Shown: one piece after another, positions 8,907 to 57,979 of the stretch
How the letters are laid out: each line of letters opens with the position of its first letter
Numbering within the stretch: the stretch's first letter is position 1
DNA from: an uncultured Actinomycetes bacterium
Lineage (GTDB): Bacteria; Actinomycetota; Thermoleophilia; RBG-16-64-13
Assembly: GCA_963814365.1 (NCBI GenBank)
Contig: CAWFCL010000005.1
Coordinates: forward strand, 68,219-132,218
Reading direction: 5' to 3'
Length of the DNA stretch: 64,000 nucleotides
The notes under the pieces: model-generated
Seen by the model: the letters and a program-made list of their open reading frames with translations, nothing else
Told to the model about the DNA's origin: nothing
Database searches by the model: none
Program-made: the position numbers and the translations under genes

Positions 8907-9521
8907 TTACTTCTTGGCTTCTGGCTCCTTGGTGGCGGACTCCTCGGAGACAGGCTCCTCAGCAGTGGAGTCTTTGACCACCTCTGGGGCCTGTCCAGCA
9001 TCGCGAGCACCCGCCTCGTACACCTCAACCGGCGGTGCAACGGGCTCAGGAGCCTGAAGAATCGGAGTCTCCTGAAGCACCGCTGTGGTCTGCGCTGCCA
9101 CCGCTTCAGCGGTGGTGACCGTCGAGACGGTCCTCATGGCCCTCATAGCCCGGTCGCTTAGAATCGCTCGCGTCACCAGGGCCGCCACCGAAGCCACGAA
9201 GACCACACCTATGGACACCCACAGGAAGTCCGACTGAAATGGCGTGAGTAGCGGGGTGCGCAGGCTAGAGAGACCCGGCCCTTCGCCGAACAGGCCCCTA
9301 AGCACCCCCAGACTGATCAGCAACAACAGCGCCTGCCAGTAGCGGCGCATCAGAGGCCAGGCAAGACCCACCAAAGCAGTTCCGGCGACCGTCACCCAAT
9401 TAAGCGCGGCCTTCGCTTCTTCCGGCATGCTCACGCTGTGAGTCAAGTAGAAGATGATGGCCACGAAAGCGCCTATCACCACGACGACGACCACTCTGCA
9501 CAACCACACCAAGAAACGCAT
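8907..9521 (-). CDS. Hypothetical integral membrane protein with an Ala/Glu/Pro-rich tail
   Basis: About four hydrophobic helices; GAGGAGG RBS upstream of ATG 9521. No family recognised. Confidence 0.6.
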   Translation of the reverse strand: MRFLVWLCRVVVVVVIGAFVAIIFYLTHSVSMPEEAKAALNWVTVAGTALVGLAWPLMRRYWQALLLLISLGVLRGLFGEGPGLSSLRTPLLTPFQSDFLWVSIGVVFVASVAALVTRAILSDRAMRAMRTVSTVTTAEAVAAQTTAVLQETPILQAPEPVAPPVEVYEAGARDAGQAPEVVKDSTAEEPVSEESATKEPEAKK

Positions 9522-9696
9522 CTTCTACCTCCTCGTCACGCTGTCGCGCCCACCAACGCAGGTCTTTCCATGAGTCTCTCATACTTCTGCGTGCTCTTCT
9601 TCCAGCACTGGGGAGTAGACTCCAATAGTCAAGTTCCCCGAAACGAGGGCCGATACTCAATCTCAGAGAAGACACCTACCTGGCGGCGCGATAGTC

Positions 9697-10353
9697 ATGC
9701 AAGAAAAGTCCGTTCTTCTCAATCCCGGGCGGGGTCACGAAGTGGTGCTCTTGCGGAGCGCACACGCCTTCTTGATCCGCATGTTGGCCATCGATCCCAC
9801 GCGACCGGTGCTAGTCACATTGCGCGCCAAGCAGGATCGCAAGGGCAAGCAGCGGGTCGGCGTCTTTGTAGACTCTAAGCACATCGGCTACCTGTCTGAG
9901 GGCTCTGACGACGAAGTACTGGTGGCAATCACAGCGTGTGCGCGCAAGGGAGCGGCAGCACGAGCCAGAGGCACACTGTCGGCATTGTCATGGGCGCCTA
10001 TCAAGGTCCTGCTCACCGTGAGTCTTGCAGACTCCGGTCACCTGCTCTCGGCCCCGCAAGGACGAATCGAGGAACCCAACCAGGCGGAGACCATCGCACC
10101 CGCGGTCCCGGACGAAGTCGCCCCGCCGGACGAAGTCGCCCCGCTCCACGAAACGCCCGAGCCCGAACCGGAGCCCGAGCCCGAACCGGAGCCCGAGCCC
10201 GAACCGGAGCCCGAGCCCGAACCGGAGCCCGAGCCCGAACCGGAGCCCGAGCCCGAACCGGAGCCCGAGAAAGCCCCTTCCCTAGCACAGCGTCTCCGTC
10301 ATCTCGGCCAGCCGAGTAAGCCCCCCGAGCCCGACGAGTTCGATCCCGCCTGA
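9697..10353 (+). CDS. Hypothetical protein, module part A (copy 1): conserved ~120-aa N-domain plus a (PE)n tail
   Basis: [17 protein letters not shown]...[17 protein letters not shown]...HLLSAP is paralogous to 11652-12050. No family recognised with confidence. Confidence 0.65.
10159..10266. repeat. Perfect tandem repeat, 6 x 18 bp (gagcccgaaccggagccc), encoding Pro-Glu dipeptides
   Basis: Read directly from the sequence. The repeat is in-frame inside CDS 9697-10353. Confidence 0.95.
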
Positions 10354-10420
10354 CGAAGCCTCCATTGACGACACCTACGAATCGGCCGAGGAACCCTTCT
10401 CAGATGACGAAGAGGAGTCG

Positions 10421-11539
10421 GTGGCTACCAGCGACCCCACCGCAGAACAGGACGCACTCAGACCCACTCCCTCGACCGATCCTGCAACGACCTCAGCTCT
10501 GTCGGCTGGCTACGAAGAGGACTATCCCGAGTGGTCCCCGCTCAAGCCTCTGCCCGCTGTGACACCGCGTCCTCCTGCTTCTGATCAGCCACCAGGCGAA
10601 CCTGCCGCACAGCCCCCTAGGTCGAAGCCATCCCTCGAGACCTTCCTAAACACTCGGTCGGCATGGATGCCTGACATGAGCAGTCAGAAGAACCAGCCGC
10701 AGCCAGGTTGGCTGGGGTACTCAGCACATACTGCCGAGCAGCCGTCCAGTCCGAAGGCGGCCCCAGATGCTTCGACGGACTCGGGTCGCAGAGCGACCGG
10801 GTTCCTCACCTCTGGCAGGGATGAGCCGAGTCGGGAACGCAGCAACATCCGTGACCTTGACAGCGAGATCGCCGATGCCTGGAAATCTTCGAAGGCGTCT
10901 ACTCGATCGGATATCGAGCGGTCGCCGGCCGAGCGGATCCGTCGGCGTCGCCGCAGCGGCAGTTGGGTGACGCCGCTGGTAGCGCTGCTGATACTCGGGT
11001 CTATCGCCTTCTTGGTATGGAGGTTCGTCTTTGGCCCGACCACCTTCACCGACCCTGAACACGGCTACTCGTTCTCACATCCGGCCCGCTGGAAGGTGAT
11101 TGACGAAGATCCAATAGCTTCTCAGTTCGAGTACCTTGTCAATATCGTGCATATGCCCGGTCCGGTGATAGTCGGCAAGCGACTCGACTCCGATAGTCCC
11201 GACGAGGCGGCGATGTTGGTAGTGGCAAGGCAAGAGATCCTCTCGTCTACAGATGGATATCGCATCCTCAACCAGATCCAGCAAGAGCTCTACCTGACAA
11301 CGAGTTCAGAGACCAAGCTCTCGGTGACCGAACCCGCCCACACCACCACTGTCGCAGGCCTGGATGCGTGGAGGGCGACCATCTTGATCGACATCGGGTC
11401 GTATTCCGTCACCGTGACCTACTGCGCGTTTCTTGATGGAAACACCGCTTACGTCCTGGTGGCCGCGGCCACCAGTGGCGCCTGGGCCAAGAGTCGGGAG
11501 ACCTTCGTCCGCTTCTTCGACAGCTTCAACCCAGGCTAG
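10421..11539 (+). CDS. Hypothetical single-pass membrane protein, module part B (copy 1): Pro/Ser-rich cytoplasmic region, one TM, PsbP/DcrB-like ectodomain
   Basis: WVTPLVALLILGSIAFLVWRFVF is the TM segment, followed by GYSFSHPARWKV.... It is paralogous to 12184-13125. The same frame is open upstream to 10286. Confidence 0.7.
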   Translation: MATSDPTAEQDALRPTPSTDPATTSALSAGYEEDYPEWSPLKPLPAVTPRPPASDQPPGEPAAQPPRSKPSLETFLNTRSAWMPDMSSQKNQPQPGWLGYSAHTAEQPSSPKAAPDASTDSGRRATGFLTSGRDEPSRERSNIRDLDSEIADAWKSSKASTRSDIERSPAERIRRRRRSGSWVTPLVALLILGSIAFLVWRFVFGPTTFTDPEHGYSFSHPARWKVIDEDPIASQFEYLVNIVHMPGPVIVGKRLDSDSPDEAAMLVVARQEILSSTDGYRILNQIQQELYLTTSSETKLSVTEPAHTTTVAGLDAWRATILIDIGSYSVTVTYCAFLDGNTAYVLVAAATSGAWAKSRETFVRFFDSFNPG

Positions 11540-11651
11540 AGAAACCCACCTCTCACACTCGTCGCGGATACAGGCGACTGTAGTTCAAGTTCCCCCGCTC
11601 TGGGCCGATACAGAGGTTACTGGGTCAAGCACGGCTACCATCGCGAGGGGC

Positions 11652-12060
11652 ATGGAAGAGAAGTTCATCCTTCTTAACGGAGGAACCTATCACGACGTAG
11701 TTCCATTGCCAGACTCGCACGCCTTCTTGACGCGTTTGTTGGGAGGCGAGGCCGAGCAGCGGGCCGTACCGATACTGCGCTCGATGCATGATCAGGAAGG
11801 AAGACAGCGCGTCGCCGTCTTTGTGGGCGCTCAGCATATCGGCTACCTGCCTGCAGATACCGATGCCGGATTGCTGGCCACAGTCAAAGCCTGTGAACTC
11901 AACGGGGCGCTGCCGCGAGTGAGAGGCAGCCTACTCTCTTCTTGGGAAGAACCCGGCAAAGTCCAAGTGCGGGTGAGCCTCGCCGCCTCTGATCACCTGC
12001 TTTCGGTCCCAGAAGAGCAGCCTGAGGAGGATCCAGTCGACGACAACGCCGACTGTCGCC
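11652..12060 (+). CDS. Module part A (copy 2); the 3' boundary is undefined because the frame runs on without a stop
   Basis: MEEKFILLNGGTYHDVV...RVAVFVGAQHIGYLPAD...HLLSVP matches copy 1. After about nt 12055 the translation becomes Arg-rich nonsense while the +1 frame becomes protein-like. Confidence 0.55.
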
Positions 12061-12183
12061 CCAGACGCCCCGGCTCTCTCGGCCGGCTGGACGGAGGACT
12101 ACCCAGAGTGGCCCCCGCCAAAGCCGAAACCTGCCGCCGAACAGCAGCCGACAGAGGGCCCATCGACGATACAGCCGTCAGCT

Positions 12184-13125
12184 ATGGAATCATCACAACA
12201 AGAAACACCCGCTCTGCAGAATGCCAAGGCGCCATCGCTGGAGGCCGTCATGGCCACCCGCTCCGCGTGGACCGGAGAAGTGGCCGGGCGGTCACAAACT
12301 CGGGACTCAGGCTGGCTAGGCGCATCCGCTCGCTCCGAAAGCCAGCCATCGCGTCCCTCGGAAGGGGCAGAGCCTTCGCCAGGTGCGGGCGCAGCCAACG
12401 CCGCAGCTTTGAGCCAGAGTTCATCGAGCGGAGCCGCCCAGGATATCGACAGCGAGATCGTCGCCGCTTGGACGTCTTCGACTTCACCCACTCAGGAGGT
12501 CCCACAGACCCTCCCGCCAGAGAGGCGTCATAGGAACGCCAATTGGGTGCTGCCGACCGTGGGCGTGCTTGTCCTGGTGTTCGCCGCCTTCTTGGTCTGG
12601 AAGTTCGTGTTCGCCCCCAAGACCTATACAGACTCTGAGTACGGCTACTCCTTCTCTTACCCGGCCCGGTGGGAGCTGATCGCTGACAGCTCCATGTTCG
12701 CCCAGTTCGCATATCTAGCCGAGGGTCAACAGATGCCCAGTATGGCGCTCGCCGGCAAAGGCTTCGACTCCGACAGCCCCGATGAGGCCGCAATGGTGGC
12801 CGTGGCAAGGGCTGAGTTACCCGCCGATGTCGACCGGTCACAGTTCGCAGCTGACATGAAGTCGGGTGTGACCGACGACCAGATAGCGTCCTCGGGTGTC
12901 GGTTTCTCTATTGTCGAACCGGTATACGCCACCACCATCGGAGGACTCGACGGCTGGAGAATGACCATGTCTATCGGCATCGGCTTCTACTCCATGACCA
13001 TGACCTACTGCGTCTTGCTCGACGATAGAACCGCTTACGTCCTCATAGCAGCCGCGACCGGCGACACCTGGGACGACAACCAGAAGAACTTCGACCGCTT
13101 CTTCAGGAGTTTCCGACCAGACTGA
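12184..13125 (+). CDS. Module part B (copy 2): TM plus PsbP/DcrB-like ectodomain protein
   Basis: WVLPTVGVLVLVFAAFLVWKFVF is the TM segment, followed by GYSFSYPARWEL.... Homology to copy 1 (ALSAGWTEDYPEW vs ALSAGYEEDYPEW) continues upstream of ATG 12184 in the same frame, back to about 12050. Confidence 0.65.
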   Translation: MESSQQETPALQNAKAPSLEAVMATRSAWTGEVAGRSQTRDSGWLGASARSESQPSRPSEGAEPSPGAGAANAAALSQSSSSGAAQDIDSEIVAAWTSSTSPTQEVPQTLPPERRHRNANWVLPTVGVLVLVFAAFLVWKFVFAPKTYTDSEYGYSFSYPARWELIADSSMFAQFAYLAEGQQMPSMALAGKGFDSDSPDEAAMVAVARAELPADVDRSQFAADMKSGVTDDQIASSGVGFSIVEPVYATTIGGLDGWRMTMSIGIGFYSMTMTYCVLLDDRTAYVLIAAATGDTWDDNQKNFDRFFRSFRPD

Positions 13126-13230
13126 CACTCGGTCCTTGCGCGTCCCTTGTGTGCTTCCCGAGAGTGCGTTCTGGGTATATCGTGGTCCGCAGCTATCGTT
13201 CGGTACCAGATCGAAGGGAAAGGATCTGCC

Positions 13231-13632
13231 ATGGGACTGATGAAGGACCTCAAGAACATGAAGGAGACTGTCGCAGCCGCCCCCGGAATGGTAGAAGAAG
13301 CCCAGAAGATGGCCGCTAACGCCCAAGCCATGGCCGCCCAACAGCAGCAGGCCGCCGCCGCGATGATGGCTCAACAGCAAGCCGCCGCTGCGGGCCCAGC
13401 AGTCGGACCAGACTTCGAGCCGGTGCAGGGTGTCACGCTTGAGCAGTTCGCCGAAGTAGCCAAGGGGCTTGCTGAGTACAACTACGATCAGACCATGGCC
13501 GTGCAGGTGGCGGGAATGAAGGGCATCGCCCCGAACGCATGGCAGGCAGCCGCAGACACCTGGAATGAGCGCATCAAGTCGAATCCCGCGGTAGCGCAGC
13601 GCTTCAATGCTCTCTACACCGGACGTGCGTGA
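13231..13632 (+). CDS. Hypothetical small protein with a Gln/Ala-rich linker
   Basis: ATG 13231 follows GAAGGGAAAGGA. The N-terminus MGLMKDLKNMKE is similar to the next gene's. Confidence 0.6.
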   Translation: MGLMKDLKNMKETVAAAPGMVEEAQKMAANAQAMAAQQQQAAAAMMAQQQAAAAGPAVGPDFEPVQGVTLEQFAEVAKGLAEYNYDQTMAVQVAGMKGIAPNAWQAAADTWNERIKSNPAVAQRFNALYTGRA

Positions 13633-14030
13633 TGGGACTACTGGGCGACATGAACAAGCTCAACAAGCAGGCGAAGGAGATGAGGAAGGACTGGGACCCG
13701 GGCGCGCAGATGCAGGACGCGATGGCGAAGATGAAGGCCGTGAACGAGTCGATGGCCGAAGCTACCCAGGCCATGACGGATGGGGCACCGGCGACCGCAC
13801 AGGTAGTCGCCGTCGGAGCCACCACCGGGATGATGAACATGAACCCCATGATGCAGATTGACCTGTTGGTCACTGCACAAGGAGGCATGCCGCGGCCCAT
13901 CTCCAAGCAGTTCGTCGTGCCCATGCAGCACCTGGGCAGATTGCAGGCTGGAGCTACTCTGCCTGTCATGGTCAGCCAATCCGACCCTGATGGGGTGGCG
14001 ATAATGTGGGATCAGCCTCTGGTCAGTTGA
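13632..14030 (+). CDS. Hypothetical small protein, N-terminal paralog of the preceding gene
   Basis: MGLLGDMNKLNKQAKEM.... ATG 13632 overlaps the upstream TGA by 1 nt (gTGATGg). Confidence 0.6.
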   Translation: MGLLGDMNKLNKQAKEMRKDWDPGAQMQDAMAKMKAVNESMAEATQAMTDGAPATAQVVAVGATTGMMNMNPMMQIDLLVTAQGGMPRPISKQFVVPMQHLGRLQAGATLPVMVSQSDPDGVAIMWDQPLVS

Positions 14031-15464
14031 GCGACGCGAAGCCGCCTGCCAAGACCGGTCGGCACACCGGCCGGATCTTCGTCTGGACGATACTGGCTCT
14101 GGTGGTCGCGGTCCTGGTCGCGGCAGGCGGCTTCTATCTCTGGTACCGGAGCGAGGTTCAGGCGTCCAACGCACGTGTAGATCCCGAGGTCATAGCGGCG
14201 CTTGGAGAACATGCCACTGCCACCACTGTGGCCCAGATCACACCCCCGGACAGCATGAATATCGTCTTGTTGGGATCGGACACCCGGTCCGTGAACGGCA
14301 AAGGCGGTCGCTCCGACACGATCATCCTGGTGCATGTGGACACGCAGAACGACTTCCTCTCGATGCTCTCCCTGCCCCGTGATCTTAGAGTCAAGATCCC
14401 CGGTCACGGCTACAACAAGATCAACGCCGCCTATGCGTACGGCGGCGCGGCGCTGCTGATACGGACGGTCCAGTCGGTCGCAGGAGTCGATCTGGACCAT
14501 TATGTCGAGACGGATTTCAACGGGTTCAAGGCGATCACCGACTCTCTGGGCGGTGTCTACTTGGATGTCGACCGGACCTACGACGACGGCAAGATCCAAC
14601 TCGAGCCGGGCTACCAACTCTTGAATGGGCAGGATGCGCTGCGTTTCTGCCGCACGCGGCACGACAAGAACATCGACTTCGGACGCATGCAGAGACAGCA
14701 GAGGTACATCTCCGCCGTGAGGGAGCAGGCACTTGGTTGGAATCTGGCCTTCAAGATGCCCACCCTCATAAGTTCCACCTTCGAGAATGTGGACACGGAC
14801 CTCTCGGCCGACCAAGTCATCAAACTCGCTTGGTGGGGCATAGGACTCGAAGGAAGCCGCATGAAGATGGCCACCCTGGTGACCCGGACCGGCACCCTGA
14901 ACGGGATCTCGTTCGTGCTGGCCACCGACAAGCAGATAGCCGACGCGGTCCACGACTTCTTGACCCCGCCTCAAGAGACATCGGTCGACACCGACGCGAA
15001 GTCTGCGGACGAGTTGCTGGCGGCCGCGCAGGTCCTTGTTGCAGAAACCGACAAGACGCCGCTCGACAGCTCCTACTGGGTCAAGCTGGCCGAGGCTACG
15101 GACTTCTCTCTGGTGGCACCCACCTATCTGCCGCCCAAGTGCAAGTACTCGTACCGGCGGAGCTACGCCATCCAAGTGGACGGCGCGGGCATGCCCGCCA
15201 TCAGAGTCGGCTACAGACTCGGGACCAAGGATCAGTACCTAGGTATAGGCGAGACCACTTGGTTGGACGCTCCCCTGGCGGTTTCGGGCACCCAGATCGT
15301 CGTGAACGACACCGTCTTCACTGTCGTGGGCACCAGCACCAAGAACCGACCATGTCTGGTGGATCGAGGGCGGCGTCCTCTGCTGGGTCGCCAACACCCT
15401 CATGTACGAAATGCCTGCAGAGCAACTCTTGGCCGTGGCCATCTCCGCCATCCCGGTGCGCTAG
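14006..15464 (+). CDS. LytR-CpsA-Psr (LCP) family cell-envelope phosphotransferase; frame-disrupted near 15347
   Basis: LLGSDTR...GRSDTIILVHVD...SLPRDL...INAAYAYGG...DFNGF...LRFCRTRH. After ...GTSTKN the listed frame turns to nonsense. The +1 frame reads HVWWIEGGVLCWVANTLMYEMPAEQLLAVAISAIPVR and stops at 15462-15464. Confidence 0.8.
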
Positions 15465-17564: not shown

Positions 17565-18110
17565 TTACTCCTCGCCCTTAATGATCTTCTGAAGAGCGAG
17601 CAGGCCACGATGCTGCAGGGCCCGCACCGCGCCCGCTCGCCGACCCAAGACTTCGGCCGTCTGTTCAGCGCTCAGTCCGCCTATGACGCGTAAAGTCAGC
17701 ACCGCTCGTTGATCCTCGGTCAAGCGCCCCAAGGCCGAGAGGACCTCCGCTGTAGAGATGCTGTCAATGGCCTCAGTCTCACTGTTGCCGCCCTCGAGTT
17801 CGTGGACAGCGTCATCGAGCGGCTTCTCCGCAGGACGCCTGCCCGCTGCTCGCCAAGAATCTATCAGCCGCCTATGGGCGATCACGAACACCCATGACCT
17901 AAAACCTGACTCATCGCCCTCGAACGTCTGAATGTCCCTTGAAACCTGCAGGAAGGTCTCGCTGGCAAGATCCTCGGCTTCCGCGGACCCGCGAGCCGCC
18001 AAGTAGCCTTTGACCGAGCCCACCAGATCACGGTAGAGGGCGGCCCAAGCCCATTCAGCGCCGGTCTTGGCTGCCATGATAGTGCGGCTGAATTCGGGAC
18101 CTAGGACCAT
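17565..18110 (-). CDS. ECF-type RNA polymerase sigma factor (sigma-70 family, regions 2 and 4)
   Basis: EDLASETFLQV...FRSWVFVIAHRRLIDSWR is region 2. LSAEQTAEVLGRRAGAVRALQHRGL is the region 4 HTH. Confidence 0.9.
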   Translation of the reverse strand: MVLGPEFSRTIMAAKTGAEWAWAALYRDLVGSVKGYLAARGSAEAEDLASETFLQVSRDIQTFEGDESGFRSWVFVIAHRRLIDSWRAAGRRPAEKPLDDAVHELEGGNSETEAIDSISTAEVLSALGRLTEDQRAVLTLRVIGGLSAEQTAEVLGRRAGAVRALQHRGLLALQKIIKGEE

Positions 18111-32146: not shown

Positions 32147-33271
32147 TCAGTGAGCCTTGGTGCGTAGGTTCCGAGTCTTGTCGATGGCTTGCAGCTTAGC
32201 TAGGGCCTTCGCCTCTATCTGGCGAATACGCTCACGGGTCACGCCGAAGCGCTTTGCCACCTCTTCCAGTGTGCGCGGGTGCTCACCCTTCAGGCCGAAG
32301 CGCAACTCGATGACCTTGCGCTCCCTGTAGGGCAGCATGGCCAGAGCGTCATTCACCCCGTCACGCTCCAACTGCGACGCCACTGCGTCGAAGGAACGCA
32401 CGGCGTCCTCGTCCTCGATGAAGTCGCCCAGTTCAGAGTCTTCTTCTTCGCCGATGGGAGTCTCCAGAGAGACCGTCGTCTGACTGATGCGCAGTATCTC
32501 GCGGATCTCCACTTCGGTCATGCTCATCTGGGTAGCAATCTCTTCGGGCTGAGGTTCGCGGCCCATGTTCTGCAACAGCTGACGCTGGACGCGGATGAGC
32601 TTGTTGATCTTCTCGACCATGTGCACGGGAATGCGTATCGTGCGCGCCTTATCGGCGATGGCACGGGTTATGGCTTGCCGGATCCACCAGGTGGCGTAAG
32701 TGCTGAACTTGTGTCCCTTGCGGTAGTCGAACTTCTCCACGGCACGTATGAGACCTAGGTTGCCTTCTTGGATGAGGTCTAAGAAGCCCATGCCATCCGT
32801 GTGGTACCTCTTGGCGATCGACACCACCAGCCGCAGGTTGGCTTCTGTAAGCTCATGCTTCGCCCTAATGTCACCACGCTCGATGCGCTTGGCCAGCGAG
32901 ACTTCCTGTTGGGCGGTCAGAAGCTTGACCCGGCCTATCTCCTTTAGATACATGCGGACAGGGTCGGTGGTAGGAACATCGACGCTCAGGTTGAGGTCGT
33001 TAGTCCCGCGCCGCCACTCGCCCTTTGCGCTCTTGCCGTCGATCTCCAGATCTTCCTCGGAGTCCATAGCGCTGTCGTCCACGACCTCTATACCTTGGTC
33101 TAGTATCGTCGTGTACAAGTACTCGATCTGCTCGGTGGTGAGGTCCAACTCCGAGAGCACTTCGGCGATGTCCTCAGCAGTGACGAAGCCTCGGCCACGC
33201 CCGAGCTCCAAGAGCCCGTCGATTTCTTCCAGGTTGGCTACCCAGCCTTCAGGAACAGGGGCATCAGCCAC
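32147..33271 (-). CDS. Sigma-70 family sigma factor, group 1/2 (RpoD paralog)
   Basis: [57 protein letters not shown], and the region 4 motif [23 protein letters not shown] start after GGAGG. Confidence 0.9.
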
Positions 33272-33327
33272 CGTCTACCTCCTCGCCTTGGCAGCGGCTG
33301 AAGAGCAAGCGCCTCGGATCCGTCATC

Positions 33328-33675
33328 TCATAGGGCCCGCGGCTCTGGACAACGATCCGCAAGCCATTTGGTGCCGTAGTCGCGCATGTGCTCGATCAGG
33401 GGTATAAGGTCCAAGCCCATGGGCGTAAGCGAGTACTCCACTCTTGGTGGGACTTCTGCGTAGCTCTTGCGCGTCAACACTCCGGCCCTCTCCAGGCTCT
33501 TGAGACGCTCAGAAAGAGTCTTGGGGCTGATGCCGGTGAGCGAGCGCTCGAGCGCGCTGAAGCGGTTGATGCCGTCGGCAAGGTCGCGAAGGATGAGCAG
33601 AGTCCACTTGCCGGAGATGATGTCTGCAGTCTTAAGGACAGGGCACGACTCTGGGTGCGCAACTTGGGATTGCAC
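33328..33675 (-). CDS. HxlR-family transcriptional regulator
   Basis: CPV......I.GKWTLLILRDL..G..RF..L.R.L.GISPKTLSERLK.LE..G...R......PPRVEYSLT..G. Confidence 0.85.
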   Translation of the reverse strand: MQSQVAHPESCPVLKTADIISGKWTLLILRDLADGINRFSALERSLTGISPKTLSERLKSLERAGVLTRKSYAEVPPRVEYSLTPMGLDLIPLIEHMRDYGTKWLADRCPEPRAL

Positions 33676-33861
33676 GACGCCGGCACCTCTCTCAACTGGC
33701 TGAGCATTACTTGACTACCTTGGAGCCGTATCACGCGGGTCCGGAAGGTAAGGCAAGGTACCAGAGATGCGGCGGGTTTTCAACCTTGTAAAGGGCATTT
33801 TGGCCAGTTTTGCTGGGTGTTCGCGACGTGGCATTCTCCGCCGCGAGACGTGCCACCAACA

Positions 33862-35319
33862 CTATGCCCTGAGGTGTTTGCGCAGGAGTTCGTTTACCAT
33901 CTGCGGGTTGGCCTGGCCTCTGGTCTCTTTCATCACTTGGCCGACAAAGAAGCCTAGGGCTTTCTCTTTGCCCTGCCGGAATTCTTCGGCAGGCCCGGGG
34001 TTGGCCTCGACCACCCGAGCCACTACGGACTCCAACTCACCGGCATCTGATATCTGACCAAGCCCCTTGTCGGCCACGATGTCCGCTGCGCTCTTGCCGG
34101 TGTCGATCATGGCCTCGAAGACCTCTTTGGCCATTTTGTTCGACAGGGTGCCGTCGGACACCAACCCCAACATCTCGGCCAGTGCCGATACGCCCAGCGG
34201 GAAACGATCGGCTTCGCCATCAGTGGCGTTCAAGTAGGCGCAGACTTCGCCTAGGACCCAGTTGGCCGCGAGGCGGGAATCGCTCGTCGCTCCGGCCAGT
34301 GACTCGAAGTAGTCACCCAGGGGCTTGTTTGTGGACAGCAGGGCGGCGTCTTTGGCCGAGAGACCGTGATCGCGAACCAACCTCTCCTTGCGAGCGGCGG
34401 GTAGCTCGGGCAGACTCGCCCGTACTCGCTCCACGTACGCTCGATCTAACTCCAAAGGTGTCAGGTCCGGCTCGGGAAAGTAGCGGTAGTCGTGCGCCTC
34501 TTCTTTGCTGCGCAGGGTATGCACGGTGCCCGTCGCTGGGTCGAAATGGACCGTTTCTTGGATGATCCTTTCACCCATCTCTAGAGCGTCTATCTGCCTC
34601 TCTATCTCCGCTTCCAGTCCGCGCTGCAAGAAGCGGAACGAGTTCATGTTCTTGAGCTCTGTCTTGGTGCCCAATGGCCCACCCGGCTTGCGAATAGAAA
34701 CATTGGCGTCACACCTTATCGAGCCCTCTTCCATATTCACGTCCGAGACACCAAGTTGCTGGACGATGTCGCGGAGCTGCTGCGCATAGGCCCTGGCCTG
34801 TTGGGGAGTCCGCATGTCAGGCTCGCTGACTATCTCGATCAGCGGGGTACCGCACCGGTTGAAGTCGGCCAGAGAATAGTCCGCCCCGTCGATACGCCCT
34901 GACGCTCCACCCGCGTGAACCAGCTTGCCGGCATCCTCTTCCATATGCACCCGGGTGATGCCCACTGGATAGGTGCTCCCGTCACCCAGGTCGATGTCCA
35001 GGTGACCTCCAATGCCCAACGGTAGGTCGTACTGCGAGATCTGATAGGCCTTGGGCATATCAGGATAGAAGTAGTTCTTGCGATGGAAGATAGTGCGTTC
35101 GGCTATTCGGCAGTCCAGGGCCAGAGCAATTCGGGTAGCGTGCTCCACGGCCTTCTCGTTCACCACCGGCAGCACGCCCGGGTGTCCAAGACAGAGAGGA
35201 CAGACTTGAGTGTTGGGCGGCTCCCCGAAAGTCACCTGACAGCCACAGAACATCTTGGTGCGGGTGTTCAGTTGAACGTGTATCTCCAGACCGATCACGG
35301 CTTCCCAGTCGCCTCTCAT
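33862..35319 (-). CDS. gatB: Asp-tRNA(Asn)/Glu-tRNA(Gln) amidotransferase subunit B
   Basis: WEAVIGLEIHVQLNT.TKMFCGC...; full length, 485 aa. Confidence 0.95.
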   Translation of the reverse strand: MRGDWEAVIGLEIHVQLNTRTKMFCGCQVTFGEPPNTQVCPLCLGHPGVLPVVNEKAVEHATRIALALDCRIAERTIFHRKNYFYPDMPKAYQISQYDLPLGIGGHLDIDLGDGSTYPVGITRVHMEEDAGKLVHAGGASGRIDGADYSLADFNRCGTPLIEIVSEPDMRTPQQARAYAQQLRDIVQQLGVSDVNMEEGSIRCDANVSIRKPGGPLGTKTELKNMNSFRFLQRGLEAEIERQIDALEMGERIIQETVHFDPATGTVHTLRSKEEAHDYRYFPEPDLTPLELDRAYVERVRASLPELPAARKERLVRDHGLSAKDAALLSTNKPLGDYFESLAGATSDSRLAANWVLGEVCAYLNATDGEADRFPLGVSALAEMLGLVSDGTLSNKMAKEVFEAMIDTGKSAADIVADKGLGQISDAGELESVVARVVEANPGPAEEFRQGKEKALGFFVGQVMKETRGQANPQMVNELLRKHLRA

Positions 35320-36770
35320 AGCGATGCCACCACCTCTACGCCGAGCGCCTGCTCGGTAGCGTGCGCCGCCTCCAGCAACAATCGCTCAGAGAAGTGCGGT
35401 CCGACCAGCTGCAGACCGACGGGCATACCCTCGGAGAATCCCGCGGGGATGCTGATACCTGGCAGACCGGCCAGGTTCACAGGGATGGTGCAGAGATCCG
35501 ACAGGTACATGGCCAGGGGGTCGGCGGTGCGCTCCCCGAGCCTGAAGGCCACCGACGGCGACGTGGGCGAGATCAGGAAGTCGAAGTCGTGGAAGGCCTT
35601 GGCGAAGTCTTGGATGATGAGCGTGCGGGTCCGTTGGGCCTGAGCGTAGTAGGCGTCGTAGTACCCGGCTGAGAGAGCATAGGTACCTATCATGATGCGC
35701 CGCTTGACCTCGGGGCCGAAGCCCTCGCTGCGGGTGCGCACGTACATGTCGTAGAGATCCTTGGGCTCGGCGGCGCGGTGACCGTAACGAACCCCGTCGA
35801 ACCGGGCCAGGTTGGAACTAGCCTCCGACGGCGCGATGAGGTAGTAGGCGGCCACGCCGCGCTCCACGCTGGGCAGGCTGACCTCTTCGCAGACGCCACC
35901 CAACGCCTCGATGGCCTTGACCGCCGAAGCGAAGACTTCGCGCACCCCAGGCTCGCTGGCGTCGCCCAAGTACTCCTTGATGATGCCAAACCGCAGTCCC
36001 TTGAGTTCTCTACGCGCGGGCATGCCCGCCGGCTCGGGGAGGCCGGTGCTGGTGGAGTCGCGGGGGTCTTTGCCGGCGATGAGATCCAAGAGAGCCGCTG
36101 TGTCTTTGACGTCGCGGGTCAGTGGACCGATCTGATCCAGTGAGCTGGCGAAGGCTATCAGGCCGTAACGGCTGACCGCCCCGTAGGTGGGCTTCATGCC
36201 CACCACGCCGCAAAGTGACGCAGGCTGCCGTATCGAACCACCGGTGTCGCTACCCAGAGCCCAGGGAGCCATGGAGGCGGCGACGCAGGCAGCGGAGCCG
36301 CCACTGGAGCCGCCCGGCACCCGGTCGAGGTCCCAGGGGTTGCGGGTCACCTGATAGGCCGAATTCTCGGTGGAGCTGCCCATGGCGAACTCGTCCATGT
36401 TGAGTTTGCCTAAGAAGATGAGTCCGGCTTCACGCAGCTTCGCCACCACGGTGGCGTCGTAGGGAGGCACGTACCCTTTGAGAATGCGAGAGGCCGCCGT
36501 CGTCTCCATGCCCTTCACACACAGGACGTCTTTGAGACCTATCGGCACCCCCTCCCAGGGGCGCCGGTCACCTTTCGACTTGGCATCCACCGCGCGGGCG
36601 GCGCGCAGCGCCCCCGCCTCATCCACCGACAGGTACGCCCCCACCGATCCGTCCACGGCAGCTATCCGGTCCAGATAAGCCTGCGTCAGCTCTGCCGCTG
36701 AGACCTCGCCATCGGCCAGCAAATCCCTGCACTGGCAAGCCGTCAGCTTGGTGACATCCAAGACAGACAC
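35316..36770 (-). CDS. gatA: Glu-tRNA(Gln) amidotransferase subunit A
   Basis: Amidase signature GGSSGGSAA.VA...LGSDTGGSIRQPA. Overlaps gatB by 4 nt. Confidence 0.95.
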   Translation of the reverse strand: MSVLDVTKLTACQCRDLLADGEVSAAELTQAYLDRIAAVDGSVGAYLSVDEAGALRAARAVDAKSKGDRRPWEGVPIGLKDVLCVKGMETTAASRILKGYVPPYDATVVAKLREAGLIFLGKLNMDEFAMGSSTENSAYQVTRNPWDLDRVPGGSSGGSAACVAASMAPWALGSDTGGSIRQPASLCGVVGMKPTYGAVSRYGLIAFASSLDQIGPLTRDVKDTAALLDLIAGKDPRDSTSTGLPEPAGMPARRELKGLRFGIIKEYLGDASEPGVREVFASAVKAIEALGGVCEEVSLPSVERGVAAYYLIAPSEASSNLARFDGVRYGHRAAEPKDLYDMYVRTRSEGFGPEVKRRIMIGTYALSAGYYDAYYAQAQRTRTLIIQDFAKAFHDFDFLISPTSPSVAFRLGERTADPLAMYLSDLCTIPVNLAGLPGISIPAGFSEGMPVGLQLVGPHFSERLLLEAAHATEQALGVEVVASL

Positions 36771-37052
36771 CTAGCCTATCCGGGGCACCACGAACTGCCC
36801 CCGTTCTACCAACGGACCGTTGCCCACCGCTTCTTCGTGTGTCAGACCGGGCACGGGCTCGTCGGCGCGCACCACGTTATTGAGCGGCACAGCACGGGAG
36901 GTGGGTTCTAAGCCTGAGAGGTCCAACTCGGACAACTGCTCCACGTAAGAGATGATCTTCTCTAGTTCGGGCTGGAGACGAGCAAGCTCGTCCTCATCAA
37001 AGCGGAGGCGCGCCAAGCGCGCGACATGTTGGACTTCTTCGCGGGAGATCAT
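36771..37052 (-). CDS. gatC: Glu-tRNA(Gln) amidotransferase subunit C
   Basis: MISREEVQHVARLARL.F.E.E; 93 aa; abuts gatA. Confidence 0.9.
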   Translation of the reverse strand: MISREEVQHVARLARLRFDEDELARLQPELEKIISYVEQLSELDLSGLEPTSRAVPLNNVVRADEPVPGLTHEEAVGNGPLVERGQFVVPRIG

Positions 37053-37192
37053 GGTCCCTGGATTATAGCCAAAAAAGAAGGGCGCCCTGGCCAGGCGCCC
37101 GAGAGGAGAAAGGAGAGTCTCTATGATGGGACTCTCGCCCCCCTTATCGGCACCCGGCCATAATGCTTTAGCCCACCAGGTCCCTGAAAACG

Positions 37193-37218
37193 AAGAGCCC
37201 CGCCGGAGCGGGGCTCTT
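37193..37218. terminator. Rho-independent terminator downstream of the csp gene
   Basis: aagagccccgc-cgga-gcggggctctt is a perfect 11-bp stem with T/A-rich flanks on both strands. Confidence 0.6.
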
Positions 37219-37248
37219 TCTTTCGCTAGAGATACTTCTCTGCTTGGG

Positions 37249-37464
37249 TCAAACGGGCGAAACGTTAGCCGCCTGAAGGCCCTTGGGACCCTGGACTACC
37301 TCAAACTTGACAGCCTGTCCTTCCGAAAGCGTCTTGAACCCCTCTACCTGGACTTCACTGAAATGGACGAAGAGATCTTCACCCTCCGGCTGCTCAATGA
37401 ATCCGTAGCCCTTTTCGGGACTAAACCACTTGACAGTCCCCTCAGCCAACCCTACAACCTCCAT
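37249..37464 (-). CDS. Cold-shock protein (CspA family)
   Basis: [15 protein letters not shown]....[11 protein letters not shown]; ATG at 37464. An intergenic leader of about 125 nt lies upstream. Confidence 0.85.
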
Positions 37465-37591
37465 GTACTCGGGGCGACGTTCGGCCCACCCCACTCAAAA
37501 CACGCGGTCCGGCACAAACCGGACACGCGGCGCCACAATAGCTGAACCTGAGTGCTTGGTCAAGCCTTGAAGCGAGAATATCGAAAACTCC

Positions 37592-38707
37592 TCAACCGTC
37601 GATGTCGCGCAGCCCTTGGGCATCACGGAAATGCTTCAGACGATTAAGGGTCTTTGCCTCCACCTGCCGGATGCGTTCCCTGGTGACGCCGAAACGCTCC
37701 CCCACTTCCTCCAAGGTCCTGGGCCGCTCACCCTTCAGCCCGAAGCGCAACTCTAGGACCTTGCGGTCGCGGGCCGGGAGGCAATCGAGCACCTTGAAGA
37801 GCTCCTCTCTGCGTAGCTCACGGAACACGACCTCCAGAGGTTGATCGGAGTCGGCGCCGGCTATGAAGTCACCAAGTTCGGAGTCCTCTTCATCGCCCAC
37901 CGGCGTTTCCAGAGAAACGGGCTCCTGCGCCGCCTTCTGTATCTCTCTTACCTTGTTCGGACTGATGCCCAGCGCTTCGGCCATCTCCGGAACGGTGGGC
38001 TCTCGTCCGCTCTTCTGCAGCAACTCCCTCTGCACCCGGTTGAGCTTGTTCATGGTCTCCACTGCGTGCACTGGCACACGGATGGTCCTGGCCTGATCGG
38101 CGATGGCTCGAGTCACCGCCTGCCGTATCCACCATGTGGCGTAGGTAGAGAACTTGTATCCCAAGCGGTAGTCGAACTTCTCGACCGCCCGGATGAGCCC
38201 CAGATTCCCCTCCTGTATCAGATCCAAGAACAGCAGCCCCCGCCCCATGTACCGTTTGGCTATCGACACCACCAGGCGCAGGTTGGCTTCGGTCAGCTTG
38301 CGCTTCGCCTCTAGGTCTTGCTGCTCCACCCGCTTGGCCAGCTCCACCTCCTGCTGAGAAGTCAACAGGGGCACCTTGCCTATCTCGCGCAAGTACATGC
38401 GTACGGGGTCGTCTACGGTGTGGTCTATCGTCACGTCCAGCAGACTCAGGAATTCCTCTCCTTCGGAAAGGTCTTCTAGGTCTTCTGACTCTTCGTCCAC
38501 CACCTCGACGCCCATGTCACCCAAGAGCGAGTACACGAACTCAACATCTTCGGGAGTCAGGTCGGCTTCGTGTATGAGCGCGTTGACTTCCTCCAGCGTC
38601 AGAGAGCCTTGCTCCTTCGCCCGCTCGAGCGCACCCTGCAACACTTCGACGGTGACGTCGCCTCCGTGTACGGTCGCATCCTTGGGATTGTCGGTATCGT
38701 CAGACAT
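37592..38707 (-). CDS. rpoD: Principal-type sigma-70 factor in the dnaG-rpoD arrangement
   Basis: Regions 1.2-4 are present ([46 protein letters not shown]). ATG 38707 overlaps the dnaG stop by 8 nt. Confidence 0.9.
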
Positions 38708-40520
38708 CCACTTCCAACTTCATAAGACTTGCACGAACGCTCTGCAGACGCCGCTCCAACTCCACCATGCGGAGTTGAGTCGCGGCCACATCGCCATCTC
38801 CCTCCAGTTGAGGCCGCAGCTGACCTATGGCCGCAACGAAAAACCGCTCCAGCAGACGCAAGTGTAGTTCCCGCAGCACGGCCGGACCATAGTCGCCCTG
38901 GTCGGCCTCCATCACAAGACGGGTGAAAAGCGGAGCAGACTCAGACCCTTCACGAGCCCGAGCCTCCAGGGCAGCCAGCACTGCCGGTCGGTCGCCTTCG
39001 CCGGCACCAAGAGCCTGCTTCAGCACGACGAACACCTCGCGTTTGCCCGGATCGGCGAAATGCTCGGGAGTGAGCGACTCGATAAAGTCCGCCGCTGTCT
39101 CCAGATTGCAGACGGCAGCCACCAGAAAGTCCCTCTCCATGGAGGCCTCACTGCCAAGCAAACGCGAAGCGGGCAAGGTGCCTCTGCCCCCGACCCCCGT
39201 CGGCTTCGCCCGTCCAGACGTGGGTGAGGGGTCGCCCTGCAGAAGAAGACTCGTGCTCTCTTCGGTGAGCCGGAGCGAGTCAGCGACCAGTGGGATCTGT
39301 TCCTCGCGCTCCTTGCGCGATTCCACCGCGCTCATGATCGTTCGCACTTCTTCGAATACCTTGAGCCTACCGTTGGCAGTGGAGGTGTTCCCCACGGCCA
39401 GCGCTTGGCGCAACTCAAACTCCAGTAGAGGCATCTTGTCCGCGGTGAGCTTGTCAACAGCCTCTTGGCCACCGGCAACGGCGACGTCGGCGGGATCTTT
39501 CCCGGTCGGCAGCACAGCGCACATGGGCCTCAACGCGTGTCCGCGGGCCAAGCGACCAGAGCGCAGCATCGCCTCGGTGCCTGCCCGGTCGGCATCGAAC
39601 ATGAAGGTGACATTCTTGGCGAAACGCATCATCAGACCTATCTGGGCGTCGGTCAGCGCGGTACCCATGGAGGCCACCACGTTGCCCGCACCCGCTTGGG
39701 CTAGAGCAAGCACGTCTGTGTATCCTTCGACCACGATCACCTCATCTGAGTCCGCTACTGCCCTTCTGGCCTGATACAGCCCGTAAAGCAATTGTCCCTT
39801 CCTGTACAGGGGCCCCTCGGGTGAGTTCAGATACTTGGGAGTCTCGTCTGCCAGTGTCCTGCCGCCGAATCCCACCACCCTGCCCCGGTGGTCGACCAGG
39901 GGGAACATGAGTCTTCCCCTGAAGCGGTCGTAGGTCTTGCCGTTCTGCCGCACCAGCAGGCCGGCATCCTCCAACTCCCGGTCGGTGTAACCCTCTTTGA
40001 TGGCGCGCCCGTGCAGACCCCTCCAACCCGGCGGCGCCAGACCCACTCGGTAGGTCTCACAGATCTCCTTGCCCAGCCCGCGCGTTTCCAGGTAGTCTCT
40101 CGCCCCCTGGCTCTCCTTCGATTCCCACAGCAACTTCTGGTAAAACTTGGCCGCTCGGTCGAGCAGCTGCAGGAGTCGCGCGTCACGCTCCTTGCGACCG
40201 GCATCGGGACCGCTGCCCTCTTGATACTGGACGGGCACACCAAAGCGCTCACCCAACTGCTCGATGACTTCCGAGAAGGTGAGATTCTCGGCGCGCTCCA
40301 AGAAACGGACGATGTCGCCGCCTTCTCCGCAGCCAAAGCAGTAGTAGAGCCCCTTGTCGGCGCTGACAGTGAACGACGGCGTCTTCTCCTGATGAAAGGG
40401 GCAGAGTCCAGAGTGGGTGGCGCCACGCTTGCGCAGGCTCGTATACCCAGAGACCACCTCTACGATATTGGCGGCCGCCAACACCGCCTGGACGCTCTCG
40501 TCCTTGATGAAGGGACTCAT
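38700..40520 (-). CDS. dnaG: DNA primase
   Basis: Zinc finger [11 protein letters not shown]......YYCFGCG..GD; TOPRIM motif [11 protein letters not shown] 40520 (MSPFIKDE). The ORF-track N-extension to 40667 looks non-coding. Confidence 0.9.
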
Positions 40521-40611
40521 GGCCGCCCGGCCGGCCGATAGCCCGCCACAGTGCCGCCCGCCACGCGATGCGGCGCGGTGCGGTGTTGCGCCACGCTGTA
40601 CTGCGCCCCAC

Positions 40612-41730
40612 TCACAGATCGCCCCAACACCTGGGCATGAACAGCTCCAGGTAGAGCCGCTGGGCATAGCGGTCGGTCATGCCCGCGACATGGTCGGTGA
40701 CAGCCCGCACGAGTCCCGTGCGGCCCGTGTCATGGCCGCTGTCCCACTCCGGTGGAGCTGGCAGCGCCTCGGGATGCTGCAAGAAGTACTCCATGAGTTC
40801 GGTCAGCAACTGCCGTATCTTCCCGCCCCCGGACTGCTCCTGGGCCCGCACGTAGACCGTCGCGAAGAGGAACTCCCGCAGCTCGGTCATGGCCTGTCCG
40901 ATCTCAGGCGTCTGCAATATACCGGGCGCCTCCACCGCCTCGTCTGCCCACGCCTCGGCGCTGGCGTCGACCAAGTCATGAACCAAAGTGTCGATGCGGT
41001 CGCTGCCGGTCTCTCCCAGGAGTCCGACCGGGCGTCTGGGTAGATCGTCCGGAGTTATGAGTCCGGCACGGAGCGCATCATCAATGTCGTGATTGACGTA
41101 GGCGATGCGGTCGGCCAGATGGACTATCTCGGCCTCCAGCGTGGCCGGGCTGGCATCGTCGCCCGAGTGGTGCCGGATGCCGTCGATGACCTCCCAGGTG
41201 AGGTTCAGACCCTGCCCCTCGTTCTCTAACACCTCGACCACGCGGACACTCTGCTCGTTGTGCTGGAACCCACCCATGCCCATCTTGCGTAGCATCTCGT
41301 CGAGCACGCTCTCGCCAGCATGTCCAAACGGAGTGTGACCCAGATCGTGGCCGAGCGCGATAGCCTCGGTCAGGTCTTCGTTGAGTCGCAGCGCCCGTGC
41401 CGCTGTCCGAGCGATGCCGGACACCTCCAAGGTGTGAGTCAGACGAGTGCGATAATGATCGCCTTCAGGAGAGATGAACACCTGGGTCTTGTGCTTCAAC
41501 CGTCGGAACGATTTGCTGTGGACTATGCGATCGCGGTCGCGCTGGTAGGCAGTGCGGAGGGAGCAGGGTTCGTCGGTACGTGCGCGGCCGCGCGACTGGG
41601 ACGAGCGCTGAGCGCGCGGAGAGAGTCCCGCCTCGTACAGGTCGGCGGACAACTCGATTCTTCCTGGCCGCTCCCTTTTCACCGTACGCACCCTCCCGGC
41701 ACTCTGCCCCGGCACCTGTGACGCTGGCAA
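40612..41730 (-). CDS. dGTP triphosphohydrolase-like HD-domain protein
   Basis: YQRDRDRI.HS..FRRL..KTQVF......HYRTRLTHTLEV..IAR......L.EAIALGHDLGHTPFGH. The start is uncertain. Confidence 0.85.
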   Translation of the reverse strand: MPASQVPGQSAGRVRTVKRERPGRIELSADLYEAGLSPRAQRSSQSRGRARTDEPCSLRTAYQRDRDRIVHSKSFRRLKHKTQVFISPEGDHYRTRLTHTLEVSGIARTAARALRLNEDLTEAIALGHDLGHTPFGHAGESVLDEMLRKMGMGGFQHNEQSVRVVEVLENEGQGLNLTWEVIDGIRHHSGDDASPATLEAEIVHLADRIAYVNHDIDDALRAGLITPDDLPRRPVGLLGETGSDRIDTLVHDLVDASAEAWADEAVEAPGILQTPEIGQAMTELREFLFATVYVRAQEQSGGGKIRQLLTELMEYFLQHPEALPAPPEWDSGHDTGRTGLVRAVTDHVAGMTDRYAQRLYLELFMPRCWGDL

Positions 41731-52268: not shown

Positions 52269-52329
52269 CGCGCTCCTGCTCTTGCCCGCCCCTGCGGCCT
52301 GAATCCAGATAGTATCTCACCCAAGACGC

Positions 52330-56894: not shown

Positions 56895-56914
56895 GGGGTC
56901 TAGCTCCCCGCGCT

Positions 56915-57973: not shown

Positions 57974-57979
57974 TGCCTC

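Follow-up and report, generated by a model that had tools for sequence, protein, structure and literature searches.

The subject of this work is a tandem duplication at 9697-13125, on the forward strand, of a 64,000-nucleotide (nt) stretch of contig CAWFCL010000005.1 from the genome assembly of an uncultured Actinomycetes bacterium (GCA_963814365.1), which as a whole is referred to below as the window. Each copy consists of a conserved N-terminal domain (part A) and, in another reading frame, a linker, a membrane-spanning segment and an ectodomain (part B). The open reading frame (ORF) map and three-frame translation place the A1 ORF of copy 1 (218 amino acids, aa) at 9697-10353, beginning with ATG 9697; the B1 frame, +1 relative to A1, is open from 10283, with its first start codon (GTG) at 10421 and its stop at 11539 (372 aa). 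In copy 2, A2 begins with ATG 11652 and the B2 frame, again +1 relative to A2, is open over 11986-13125. Common to both copies are the motifs LSAG(Y/W).EDYPEW and D.DSEI..AW, one hydrophobic helix after a basic patch and an ectodomain that opens with GYSFS.PARW (Table 1). An earlier, sequence-only reading, in which the region was described as a duplicated two-part module with a cytoplasmic domain, a linker, one transmembrane (TM) helix and an ectodomain, had placed the ORFs correctly; every motif it quoted was found again, and the topology it drew is supported.

Probable single gene in each copy

The duplication is real and well above chance level. A1 and A2 are 47% identical over 122 aa (E 1e-31) and B1 and B2 42% over 380 aa (E 1e-80), and the ectodomains by themselves share 47% identity, where ~45% had been estimated earlier; together with a 5' element common to both copies, this bears out the earlier claim that the duplication takes in the upstream region.

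It is likely that the region holds two tandem paralogous genes rather than four, and that each encodes a single-pass membrane protein with its N-terminus inside and its C-terminus outside the cell. Removal of any one base within 10283-10353 produces one 613-aa ORF spanning 9697-11539, and removal of any one base within 12030-12071 produces one 490-aa ORF spanning 11652-13125; exactly one extra base is therefore indicated per copy. At the DNA level, A and B run uninterrupted as one ORF in 11 copies at 9 related loci, among them the second copy of locus L001 (537 aa), L003, the loci of two metagenome-assembled genomes (MAGs) from GTDB (L004, 525 aa; L005, 538 aa), the JGI contigs L006, L007 and L009, and the first copy on scaffold L011 (orthologue P0006), which is an intact ORF of 665 aa. 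The second copy of L002 is in a single frame up to the end of its contig, and that of L011 from A to the TM helix, up to a gap of 100 N. The protein databases give the same picture: P0005 (535 aa), which was found in the search with B1, has the A domain, linker, TM helix and ectodomain in a single chain, and about a dozen proteins align end to end with A plus B. One-ORF relatives of this type are P0006, P0009, P0012-15, P0021 and P0022; P0019 and P0024 are also one ORF and, as called, lack only the first ~17 residues of A. Judging from the ratio of nonsynonymous to synonymous substitution rates (dN/dS 0.17-0.36 across A1, B1, A2 and B2), purifying selection acts on A as well as on B in each copy.

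The deposited sequence has separate ORFs in both copies, and B1 and B2 are called as proteins (P0001 and P0004), which would agree with A and B being two separate proteins, that is, with a conserved module of two genes, one for a novel cytoplasmic protein and one for a membrane sensor, that was duplicated as a pair. We regard this as very improbable, since A+B is one ORF in nearly all relatives, the break positions vary among genomes so that no gene boundary is conserved, and neither an intergenic region nor a ribosome-binding site or promoter was found between A and B. Furthermore, homology between the copies and to the relatives runs upstream of the B1 start codon, and the conserved LSAGWTEDYPEWPPPKPKP motif of copy 2 precedes the first ATG, GTG or TTG of the B2 frame (ATG 12184); B2 is therefore not an independent ORF, and the two observations together argue against independent B genes. 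The two-gene module of the sequence-only reading was not sustained: in the relatives, its A makes up the N-terminal and its B the C-terminal part of a single polypeptide, and a check for their co-occurrence as separate genes finds them encoded as a single ORF.

With one gene per copy as the preferred description, the origin of the frame breaks has to be weighed. All four lesions recognized in the window are +1 shifts, each with one extra base. The two outside the duplication lie in conserved genes. In the LytR-CpsA-Psr (LCP) gene (14006-15461, +), tblastn with intact L004 orthologues puts a frame change at ~15336-15343, ~40 codons before the end, and with one base removed in AACCGACC a 485-aa protein results whose C-terminus matches the intact L004 orthologue. 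In pbpA (52316-53713, -; called ORF 52475-53713), with a frameshift at ~52885-52905, the called ORF covers the first 118 of the 299 positions of the Pfam transpeptidase profile, the SxxK (GSVFK) and SxN (SSIN) motifs being in one frame and the remainder of the transpeptidase domain, including KTG, in the +1 frame. The evidence for frameshifts came from tblastn with intact orthologues and from Pfam profiles that were only partly covered, the frame screen by third- and second-position GC content (GC3/GC2) alone being too noisy. Given that LCP and pbpA of this window carry the same one-extra-base lesion, an indel error of the assembly is the likeliest explanation, and the frame break in each copy is probably a single-base insertion error and not biology. 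Related MAG contigs also have frame breaks in other conserved genes (a 133-aa gene of L001, and LCP twice in L005), and in copy 1 of L001 (7640-7730), where five 18-nt repeats (GCTGACGAGGTGGCCCCG) are otherwise nearly identical, the break comes from a CCCC run of the third unit that is short of one C. A common CCGAC context for the inserted bases was considered and dropped, as it suits LCP and possibly copy 2 but not pbpA.

The state of copy 1 across genomes weighs against an assembly error. Of the four genomes examined, three (the window, L001 and L002) have an interrupted copy 1, each time at a different place, and the lesion in L002 (3914-3939; JGI metagenome contig) consists of 13 nt duplicated in tandem (GCAGACCCGAATA), unlike a typical basecalling error. 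These independent interruptions are in keeping with real mutations that followed the duplication, when selection would relax through redundancy, and that left one or both copies as split genes or young pseudogenes; A would then be soluble in the cytoplasm and end in residues read out of frame, and translation of B, if it occurs, would start from GTG 10421, which has GAGGAG upstream, or from ATG 12184/12250. We nonetheless hold this to be unlikely. That the matching lesions of pbpA and LCP should all be real in a viable cell is difficult to accept, the strongly conserved LSAGWTEDYPEWPPPKPKP motif of copy 2 would stay untranslated, no Shine-Dalgarno-like sequence precedes ATG 12184, both copies of scaffold L011 are intact (copy 2 as read up to the gap), and dN/dS is < 0.4 throughout, though recent lesions would escape that measure. 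That copy 1 is broken repeatedly, in three genomes, through a biological, contingency-like split of the paralogue is likewise the less likely reading. Within the linker, programmed +1 ribosomal frameshifting or slippage during transcription, by which A alone and an A-B fusion would both be made, could draw on the need for the same +1 shift in both copies and on the position of the breaks in repetitive, C-rich linker DNA. It is barely credible, however, as no shift site is conserved, the position and sequence context of the break differ between the copies, the orthologues either lack a shift or show one of -1 at another place, the same +1 lesion occurs in LCP and pbpA, and no Rfam element or structure was found.

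The practical outcome, with an assembly error as the preferred explanation, is a correction, in that four annotated or apparent ORFs become two genes whose split is very probably an indel artefact, and at least four frame errors are flagged in 64 kb of this assembly. The apparent strangeness of the locus stems largely from these assembly frame errors.

Table 1. Features of the tandem locus and its immediate neighbours in window coordinates (pLDDT, predicted local distance difference test).
Feature	Position	Strand	Details
Promoter-like element, copy 1	9629..9656	+	TCAA 9629-9632, N16, GCCGATAC 9649-9656; 40 nt before ATG 9697
HIRAN-like N-terminal cytoplasmic domain, part A1	9697..10071	+	dN/dS 0.17-0.29 vs orthologues
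Cytoplasmic linker, copy 1, acidic/Pro-rich	10072..10963	+	18-nt tandem repeats 10155-10269
Linker motifs, copy 1		+	LSAG(Y/W).EDYPEW as LSAGYEEDYPEW... 10499-10555; TRSAW 10652-10666; GWLG 10706-10717; D.DSEI..AW as DLDSEIADAWKSS 10853-10891; basic patch 10934-10957
Frame break, copy 1, frame 1 to frame 2	10283..10353	+	likeliest site GATCCCGCCTGAC (10342-10354)
Transmembrane helix, copy 1 (WVTPLVALLILGSIAFLVWRFVF)	10964..11032	+	basic residues N-terminal of helix
Extracytoplasmic PsbP/LpqN-fold domain and stop codon, copy 1	11039..11539	+
Promoter-like element, copy 2	11585..11611	+	TCAA 11585-11588, N15, GCCGATAC 11604-11611; 40 nt before ATG 11652
HIRAN-like N-terminal cytoplasmic domain, part A2	11652..12026	+	AlphaFold2 pLDDT 89
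Frame break, copy 2, frame 0 to frame 1	12030..12071	+
Cytoplasmic linker, copy 2	12072..12543	+	LSAG(Y/W).EDYPEW as LSAGWTEDYPEWPPPKPKP 12076-12132; TRSAW 12256-12270; GWLG 12310-12321; D.DSEI..AW as DIDSEIVAAWTSS 12442-12480; basic patch 12523-12537
Transmembrane helix, copy 2 (WVLPTVGVLVLVFAAFLVWKFVF)	12544..12612	+
Extracytoplasmic PsbP/LpqN-fold domain and stop codon, copy 2	12622..13125	+	AlphaFold2 pLDDT 82
Divergently transcribed 204-aa membrane protein, no Pfam family	8907..9521	-	synteny in L001, L004, L005, L011
Two small proteins, similar N-termini (MGL..D..K..K), faint DUF hits only	13228..13632, 13629..14030	+	synteny in L001, L004, L005, L011

Domains of the encoded protein

Part A is a divergent HIRAN relative that lies outside the curated family. 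HIRAN domains have so far been studied as DNA 3'-end readers of fork-remodelling enzymes. A profile built from A1 and A2 and searched against 1.8 billion sequences finds 45 family proteins of up to 727 aa, with A at the N-terminus in all of them; its nine weak matches (E 1e-5 to 5e-4) include seven actinobacterial proteins with Pfam HIRAN hits, four of which are above the gathering score and one of which, from Pseudoclavibacter alba (WP_206394368), is named 'HIRAN domain-containing protein'. When the A family alignment (A3) is compared in hhalign with the bona fide HIRAN domains of these seven proteins (A4), the result is 98.3% (E 1.8e-14, 114 columns), against 0.06% for a control comparison with the unrelated ectodomain alignment, and the HIRAN set itself matches HLTF HIRAN structures at 4e-7 and 3k2y at 0.01. 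HIRAN is also the Pfam family most often weakly matched by members of the A family (4 of 36, best E 0.006, below threshold). The AlphaFold2 model of A2, with nine strands and two helices (predicted TM-score, pTM, 0.82), has the HIRAN relative 3k2y as its best PDB match by TM-score in Foldseek (0.48/0.56, prob 0.95), whereas Kluyveromyces lactis Rad5 (6l8o) ranks 31st with a TMq of 0.28. The sequence-only reading had noted a vague resemblance to HIRAN, a hunch that the hhalign result and the 3k2y match support, and had recognized no characterized family for part A; no curated family in Pfam, NCBIfam or PADLOC covers it.

Several points tell against this assignment. The HIRAN comparison set was itself selected by the A profile, A2 scores 11.6-11.8 bits (E 0.2) against the Pfam HIRAN family (PF08797) with its gathering threshold of 24.7 bits, A1 has no Pfam HIRAN hit, and the A2 model has no PDB match in Foldseek at E <= 1e-3, its TM-score to 3k2y being only ~0.5. 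A word-indexed protein search with residues 1-125 of A1 found nothing, and the exhaustive profile search was needed. Among candidates set aside, the N-terminal region of BrxL and KirBac, which have the top Foldseek E-values for the A2 model, were rejected as non-specific (TM-score 0.2-0.3), the glutaredoxin matches of the A-profile search of PDB sequences were attributed to chance (E about 1), and P0051 and P0053 were rejected as relatives, being long tandem-repeat proteins whose scores are summed from many weak repeats. Separately, in the actinobacterial HIRAN-domain proteins P0052 and P0054-P0059, the A profile also matches a further domain (VQVTGEE.H.DVL...VQV..DG..VG.L) at the C-terminus; these proteins thus appear to hold two tandem HIRAN-like domains, in some cases with an N-terminal TM segment.

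The A domain is also present in a more distant branch (P0025, P0029-P0049), whose N-terminus reads ...LLNGGR..V..V.GAD.F...LLG.APAK...LRVVKNAAG.PFVAV and in which it is joined to a zinc ribbon, to at least one TM helix and, at the C-terminus, to modules of different kinds (Lamin-tail domain, LTD; DUF2569); some of these distant members combine DUF2569 with a PsbP-like module. In HLTF, the HIRAN domain binds single-stranded DNA in a cavity flanked by Y72 and Y93, with N90/N91 required, and the NPYD motif contains N90/N91 and Y93 (PMC4666394). In the hhalign alignment, the NPYD positions fall on DQEG in A2, and the A family consensus there is N..G.P; the residues of the DNA 3'-end pocket are thus not kept, Tyr and Asp being lost in the family and Asn also in the window copies. 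Canonical 3'-end binding is therefore not predicted, and a protein partner or a different mode of nucleic-acid binding would be the more likely role. If the domain nevertheless functioned as a HIRAN and bound the 3' ends of DNA, the protein would serve to fasten DNA to the membrane (the ends of chromosomes, intermediates of replication or repair, or DNA entering the cell), in the manner of a membrane-anchored DNA-binding one-component regulator. The homology of A to HIRAN, the zinc ribbon beside the domain in distant members and the binding of single-stranded DNA by HLTF HIRAN (PMC4666394) speak for such a tether, yet with the pocket Tyr and Asp and the Asn of the window copies replaced, and with no DNA-metabolism gene consistently adjacent (RmuC is 2.4 kb off, with three or four genes between), we consider it quite improbable. 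The A domain, with the canonical DNA-end pocket lost, extends the HIRAN superfamily into membrane proteins.

Between part A and the membrane, three short linker motifs are conserved in the family: LSAGxxEDYPEWPPPKPK, TRSAW...GWLG and D.EI..AW.SS. The linker of copy 1 also contains a perfect 18-nt tandem repeat (6.4 copies, 100% match) that encodes (PE)19 at 10156-10269, and this (PE)n repeat of A1 gives rise to spurious database hits of the TonB, ClfB and PARP types. By the positive-inside rule, the basic patch before the helix suggests that the N-terminal side faces the cytoplasm, with the C-terminal domain outside.

Against the Pfam PsbP family (PF01789; cut-off 23.5 bits), the ectodomain is borderline: B1 scores 23.3 bits over 5-154 of the 155 profile positions and B2 23.7 bits, but over a best stretch that is short. 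A profile of the ectodomain family matches PsbP-like chains in the PDB (7eu3, 2.3e-6; 9grx, 2.4e-4; 2xb3, 1.5e-3). With the AlphaFold2 model of the copy 2 ectodomain, Foldseek gives 43 PDB matches at E <= 1e-3, including CyanoP (2xb3; E 1.3e-7, TM-score 0.71/0.76) and LpqN (6e5d; TM-score 0.68), with PsbP, Mtc28, Apa, DcrB and SciW/EagT6 at prob 1.00. According to these models the ectodomain has the PsbP/Mog1 alpha-beta-alpha sandwich fold, and the earlier description of it as PsbP/DcrB-like was correct. Relatives with the PsbP/LpqN fold bind lipids, glycoconjugates or protein partners.

Upstream element and genomic context

A consensus of TCAA(G)-N15/16-(G/A)CCGATA(C/T) precedes the gene in 14 of 14 copies at 10 loci and ends 38-43 nt before the start codon. 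It is kept even where the orthologous proteins are only ~30% identical; nine aligned upstream regions show two invariant blocks amid diverged sequence, and the pattern AAGTT-N11-16-CCGATA has 3 matches where 0.03 are expected. The conserved 5' flank reported by the sequence-only reading is thus real in both copies, but its first element is displaced from the 9638-9672 given there, and the gap between CAAGTTCCCC and GGGCCGATAC is not N8/9 but 7 and 6 nt.

Sigma factors of the WhiG/sigma-28 family control a motility, pilus or developmental programme in Actinomycetota. The published WhiG2 query is T(A/C)AA-N16-GCCGA, with a -10 element of GCCGATAA, a central CGA and a location <=200 bp from the start codon (PMC12871210), and the flagellar sigma-28 consensus is TAAA / GCCGATAA (PMC12871210, PMC8325347), PMC12784957 being a further source of a consensus of this type. 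The elements of the window, TCAA-N16-GCCGATAC in copy 1 and TCAA-N15-GCCGATAC in copy 2, conform to these consensus sequences, and because of the fit to T(A/C)AA-N16-GCCGATAA we lean towards regarding the element as a putative promoter read by a sigma factor of the sigma-28 family (WhiG/FliA). It weighs against this that no sigma-28/WhiG gene is found within the 64-kb window, whose sigma genes are one of the extracytoplasmic function (ECF) type (17565-18110) and two primary-like (32147-33271, 37592-38707). A scan of 9400-13300 revealed no sigma-70-type promoter and terminators at chance level only, none of them convincing, and an Rfam search of the region returned no element. Elsewhere in the window, at ~37145-37175 (-), a near-perfect flagellar-type sigma-28 consensus, TAAAGCAT-N11-GCCGATAA, stands ~95 nt upstream of gatCAB, between a csp-like gene (37249-37494) and gatC (36771-37052); with 33 CCGATA sites in the window, it could be a chance occurrence or a second WhiG-type promoter. 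The perfectly conserved putative WhiG-type promoter provides a concrete, testable regulatory hypothesis for an uncharacterized protein of uncultured, hydrogenase-bearing Actinomycetes.

The A family amounts to about 45 clusters (at 50% identity) among the 1.8 billion representatives, all of them metagenomic; its members are unannotated, bearing the name 'hypothetical protein' wherever the source names them. Among the GTDB species representatives, a full-length alignment scan finds the PsbP-type gene in only two MAGs, both titled 'uncultured Actinomycetes bacterium'. The gene is a tandem pair in the window, L001, L002 and L011 and a single copy in L004 and L005. Genes for a bifurcating-type [FeFe]-hydrogenase, the divergent 204-aa membrane protein, the gene itself in one or two copies, the two small proteins, LCP and RmuC follow one another in an order that is kept in L001, L004 and L005 and partly in L002 and L011. 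The three syntenic neighbours (the 204-aa membrane protein and the two small proteins of Table 1) may, on this evidence, be functionally linked to the gene. Farther along the minus strand, the window has an actinobacterial cell-wall and division cluster at 50271-59734 (fhaA-like, PP2C phosphatase, RodA/FtsW, PbpA, PASTA kinase and a second kinase) and, at 32147-40667, dnaG, the two primary-like sigma-70 genes, gatCAB, pyruvate phosphate dikinase and a fused glycyl-tRNA synthetase. Both regions, along with the titles of the L004 and L005 MAGs, are consistent with an Actinomycetota chromosome.

Proposed role and comparison with known systems

The firm results of this work are the structural re-annotation and the domain assignments; what is new is an undescribed membrane architecture, the HIRAN superfamily and the PsbP fold being already known. 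As to function, we tentatively propose an envelope-anchored adaptor or sensor that would be expressed under WhiG-type control. The protein would span the membrane once, with its PsbP/LpqN-like domain facing the envelope, where, like mycobacterial LpqN/Mtc28 or DcrB, it would bind an envelope lipid, glycan or protein; the HIRAN-like barrel and the three tryptophan-containing linear motifs of the linker would recruit a cytoplasmic partner, and the WhiG-type promoter would place expression in a motility, pilus or developmental programme. That one N-terminal domain recurs with different outside modules suggests that it acts as a shared adaptor or output in the cytoplasm, and the protein may belong to an undescribed signalling system, as had been proposed from the sequence at the outset. 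Weighing against the proposal, the neighbours (hydrogenase, LCP, RmuC and ECF sigma factor) give no specific functional clue, and searches with PADLOC, NCBIfam and Rfam gave nothing relevant to function; PADLOC had no hits for P0005, P0006, P0012, P0031, P0055 or B1, its only hit being a low-complexity one to the PE repeat of A1.

A wider and more speculative postulate is that a HIRAN-derived barrel has been recruited as the common cytoplasmic module of lineage-specific actinobacterial membrane proteins, with varied outside modules and a deeply conserved WhiG/sigma-28-type promoter. If true, these proteins would couple a cue from the envelope to a nucleic-acid or protein partner in the cytoplasm in an undescribed way, at the transitions that WhiG controls (motility, pili, development). 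The relevance of the findings is mainly to domain classification and the mapping of WhiG regulons, and they have no bearing on a long-standing open question.

In layout, the protein resembles one-component regulators of the ToxR/CadC type and membrane anti-sigma factors, in which an N-terminal effector domain in the cytoplasm is likewise followed by a basic patch, a single TM helix and a sensor-type domain outside; the variation of the outside modules across the A family is a further parallel, and the resemblance is one of layout only. Unlike these, it has no winged helix-turn-helix or anti-sigma domain, no cognate sigma factor or target adjoins it, and a disordered linker of 250-400 aa separates its domain from the membrane. 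The upstream element shares with the WhiG/FliA target promoters of Actinomycetota two conserved blocks at a fixed spacing within 200 bp of the start codon, but half of the copies have N15 instead of N16, and the final position is occupied by C or T where the consensus has A.

With the HIRAN domains of PF08797 (HLTF, Rad5, and Lactobacillus plantarum lp_0118, 3k2y), part A has in common a length of ~120 aa, a predicted beta-barrel with two helices, which in HLTF is described as six-stranded and capped by the helices (PMC4666394), and a central ...AVaVfv.g.hVGYLp...A..l... block. It differs in its place at the N-terminus of membrane proteins, not in helicases, nucleases or soluble proteins, in Pfam scores that are all below threshold, and in an NPYD / Y72-Y93 pocket that is not conserved. 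The ectodomain, finally, compares with a series of PsbP/Mog1-fold envelope proteins: CyanoP (2xb3), plant PsbP and PnsL1, LpqN (6e5d), Mtc28 (4pws) and Apa (5zx9) of Mycobacterium tuberculosis, DcrB of Salmonella (6e8a) and SciW/EagT6. It has the same fold and extracytoplasmic location as these, but is anchored by a TM helix to a cytoplasmic region of 300-425 aa instead of being a secreted protein or lipoprotein.

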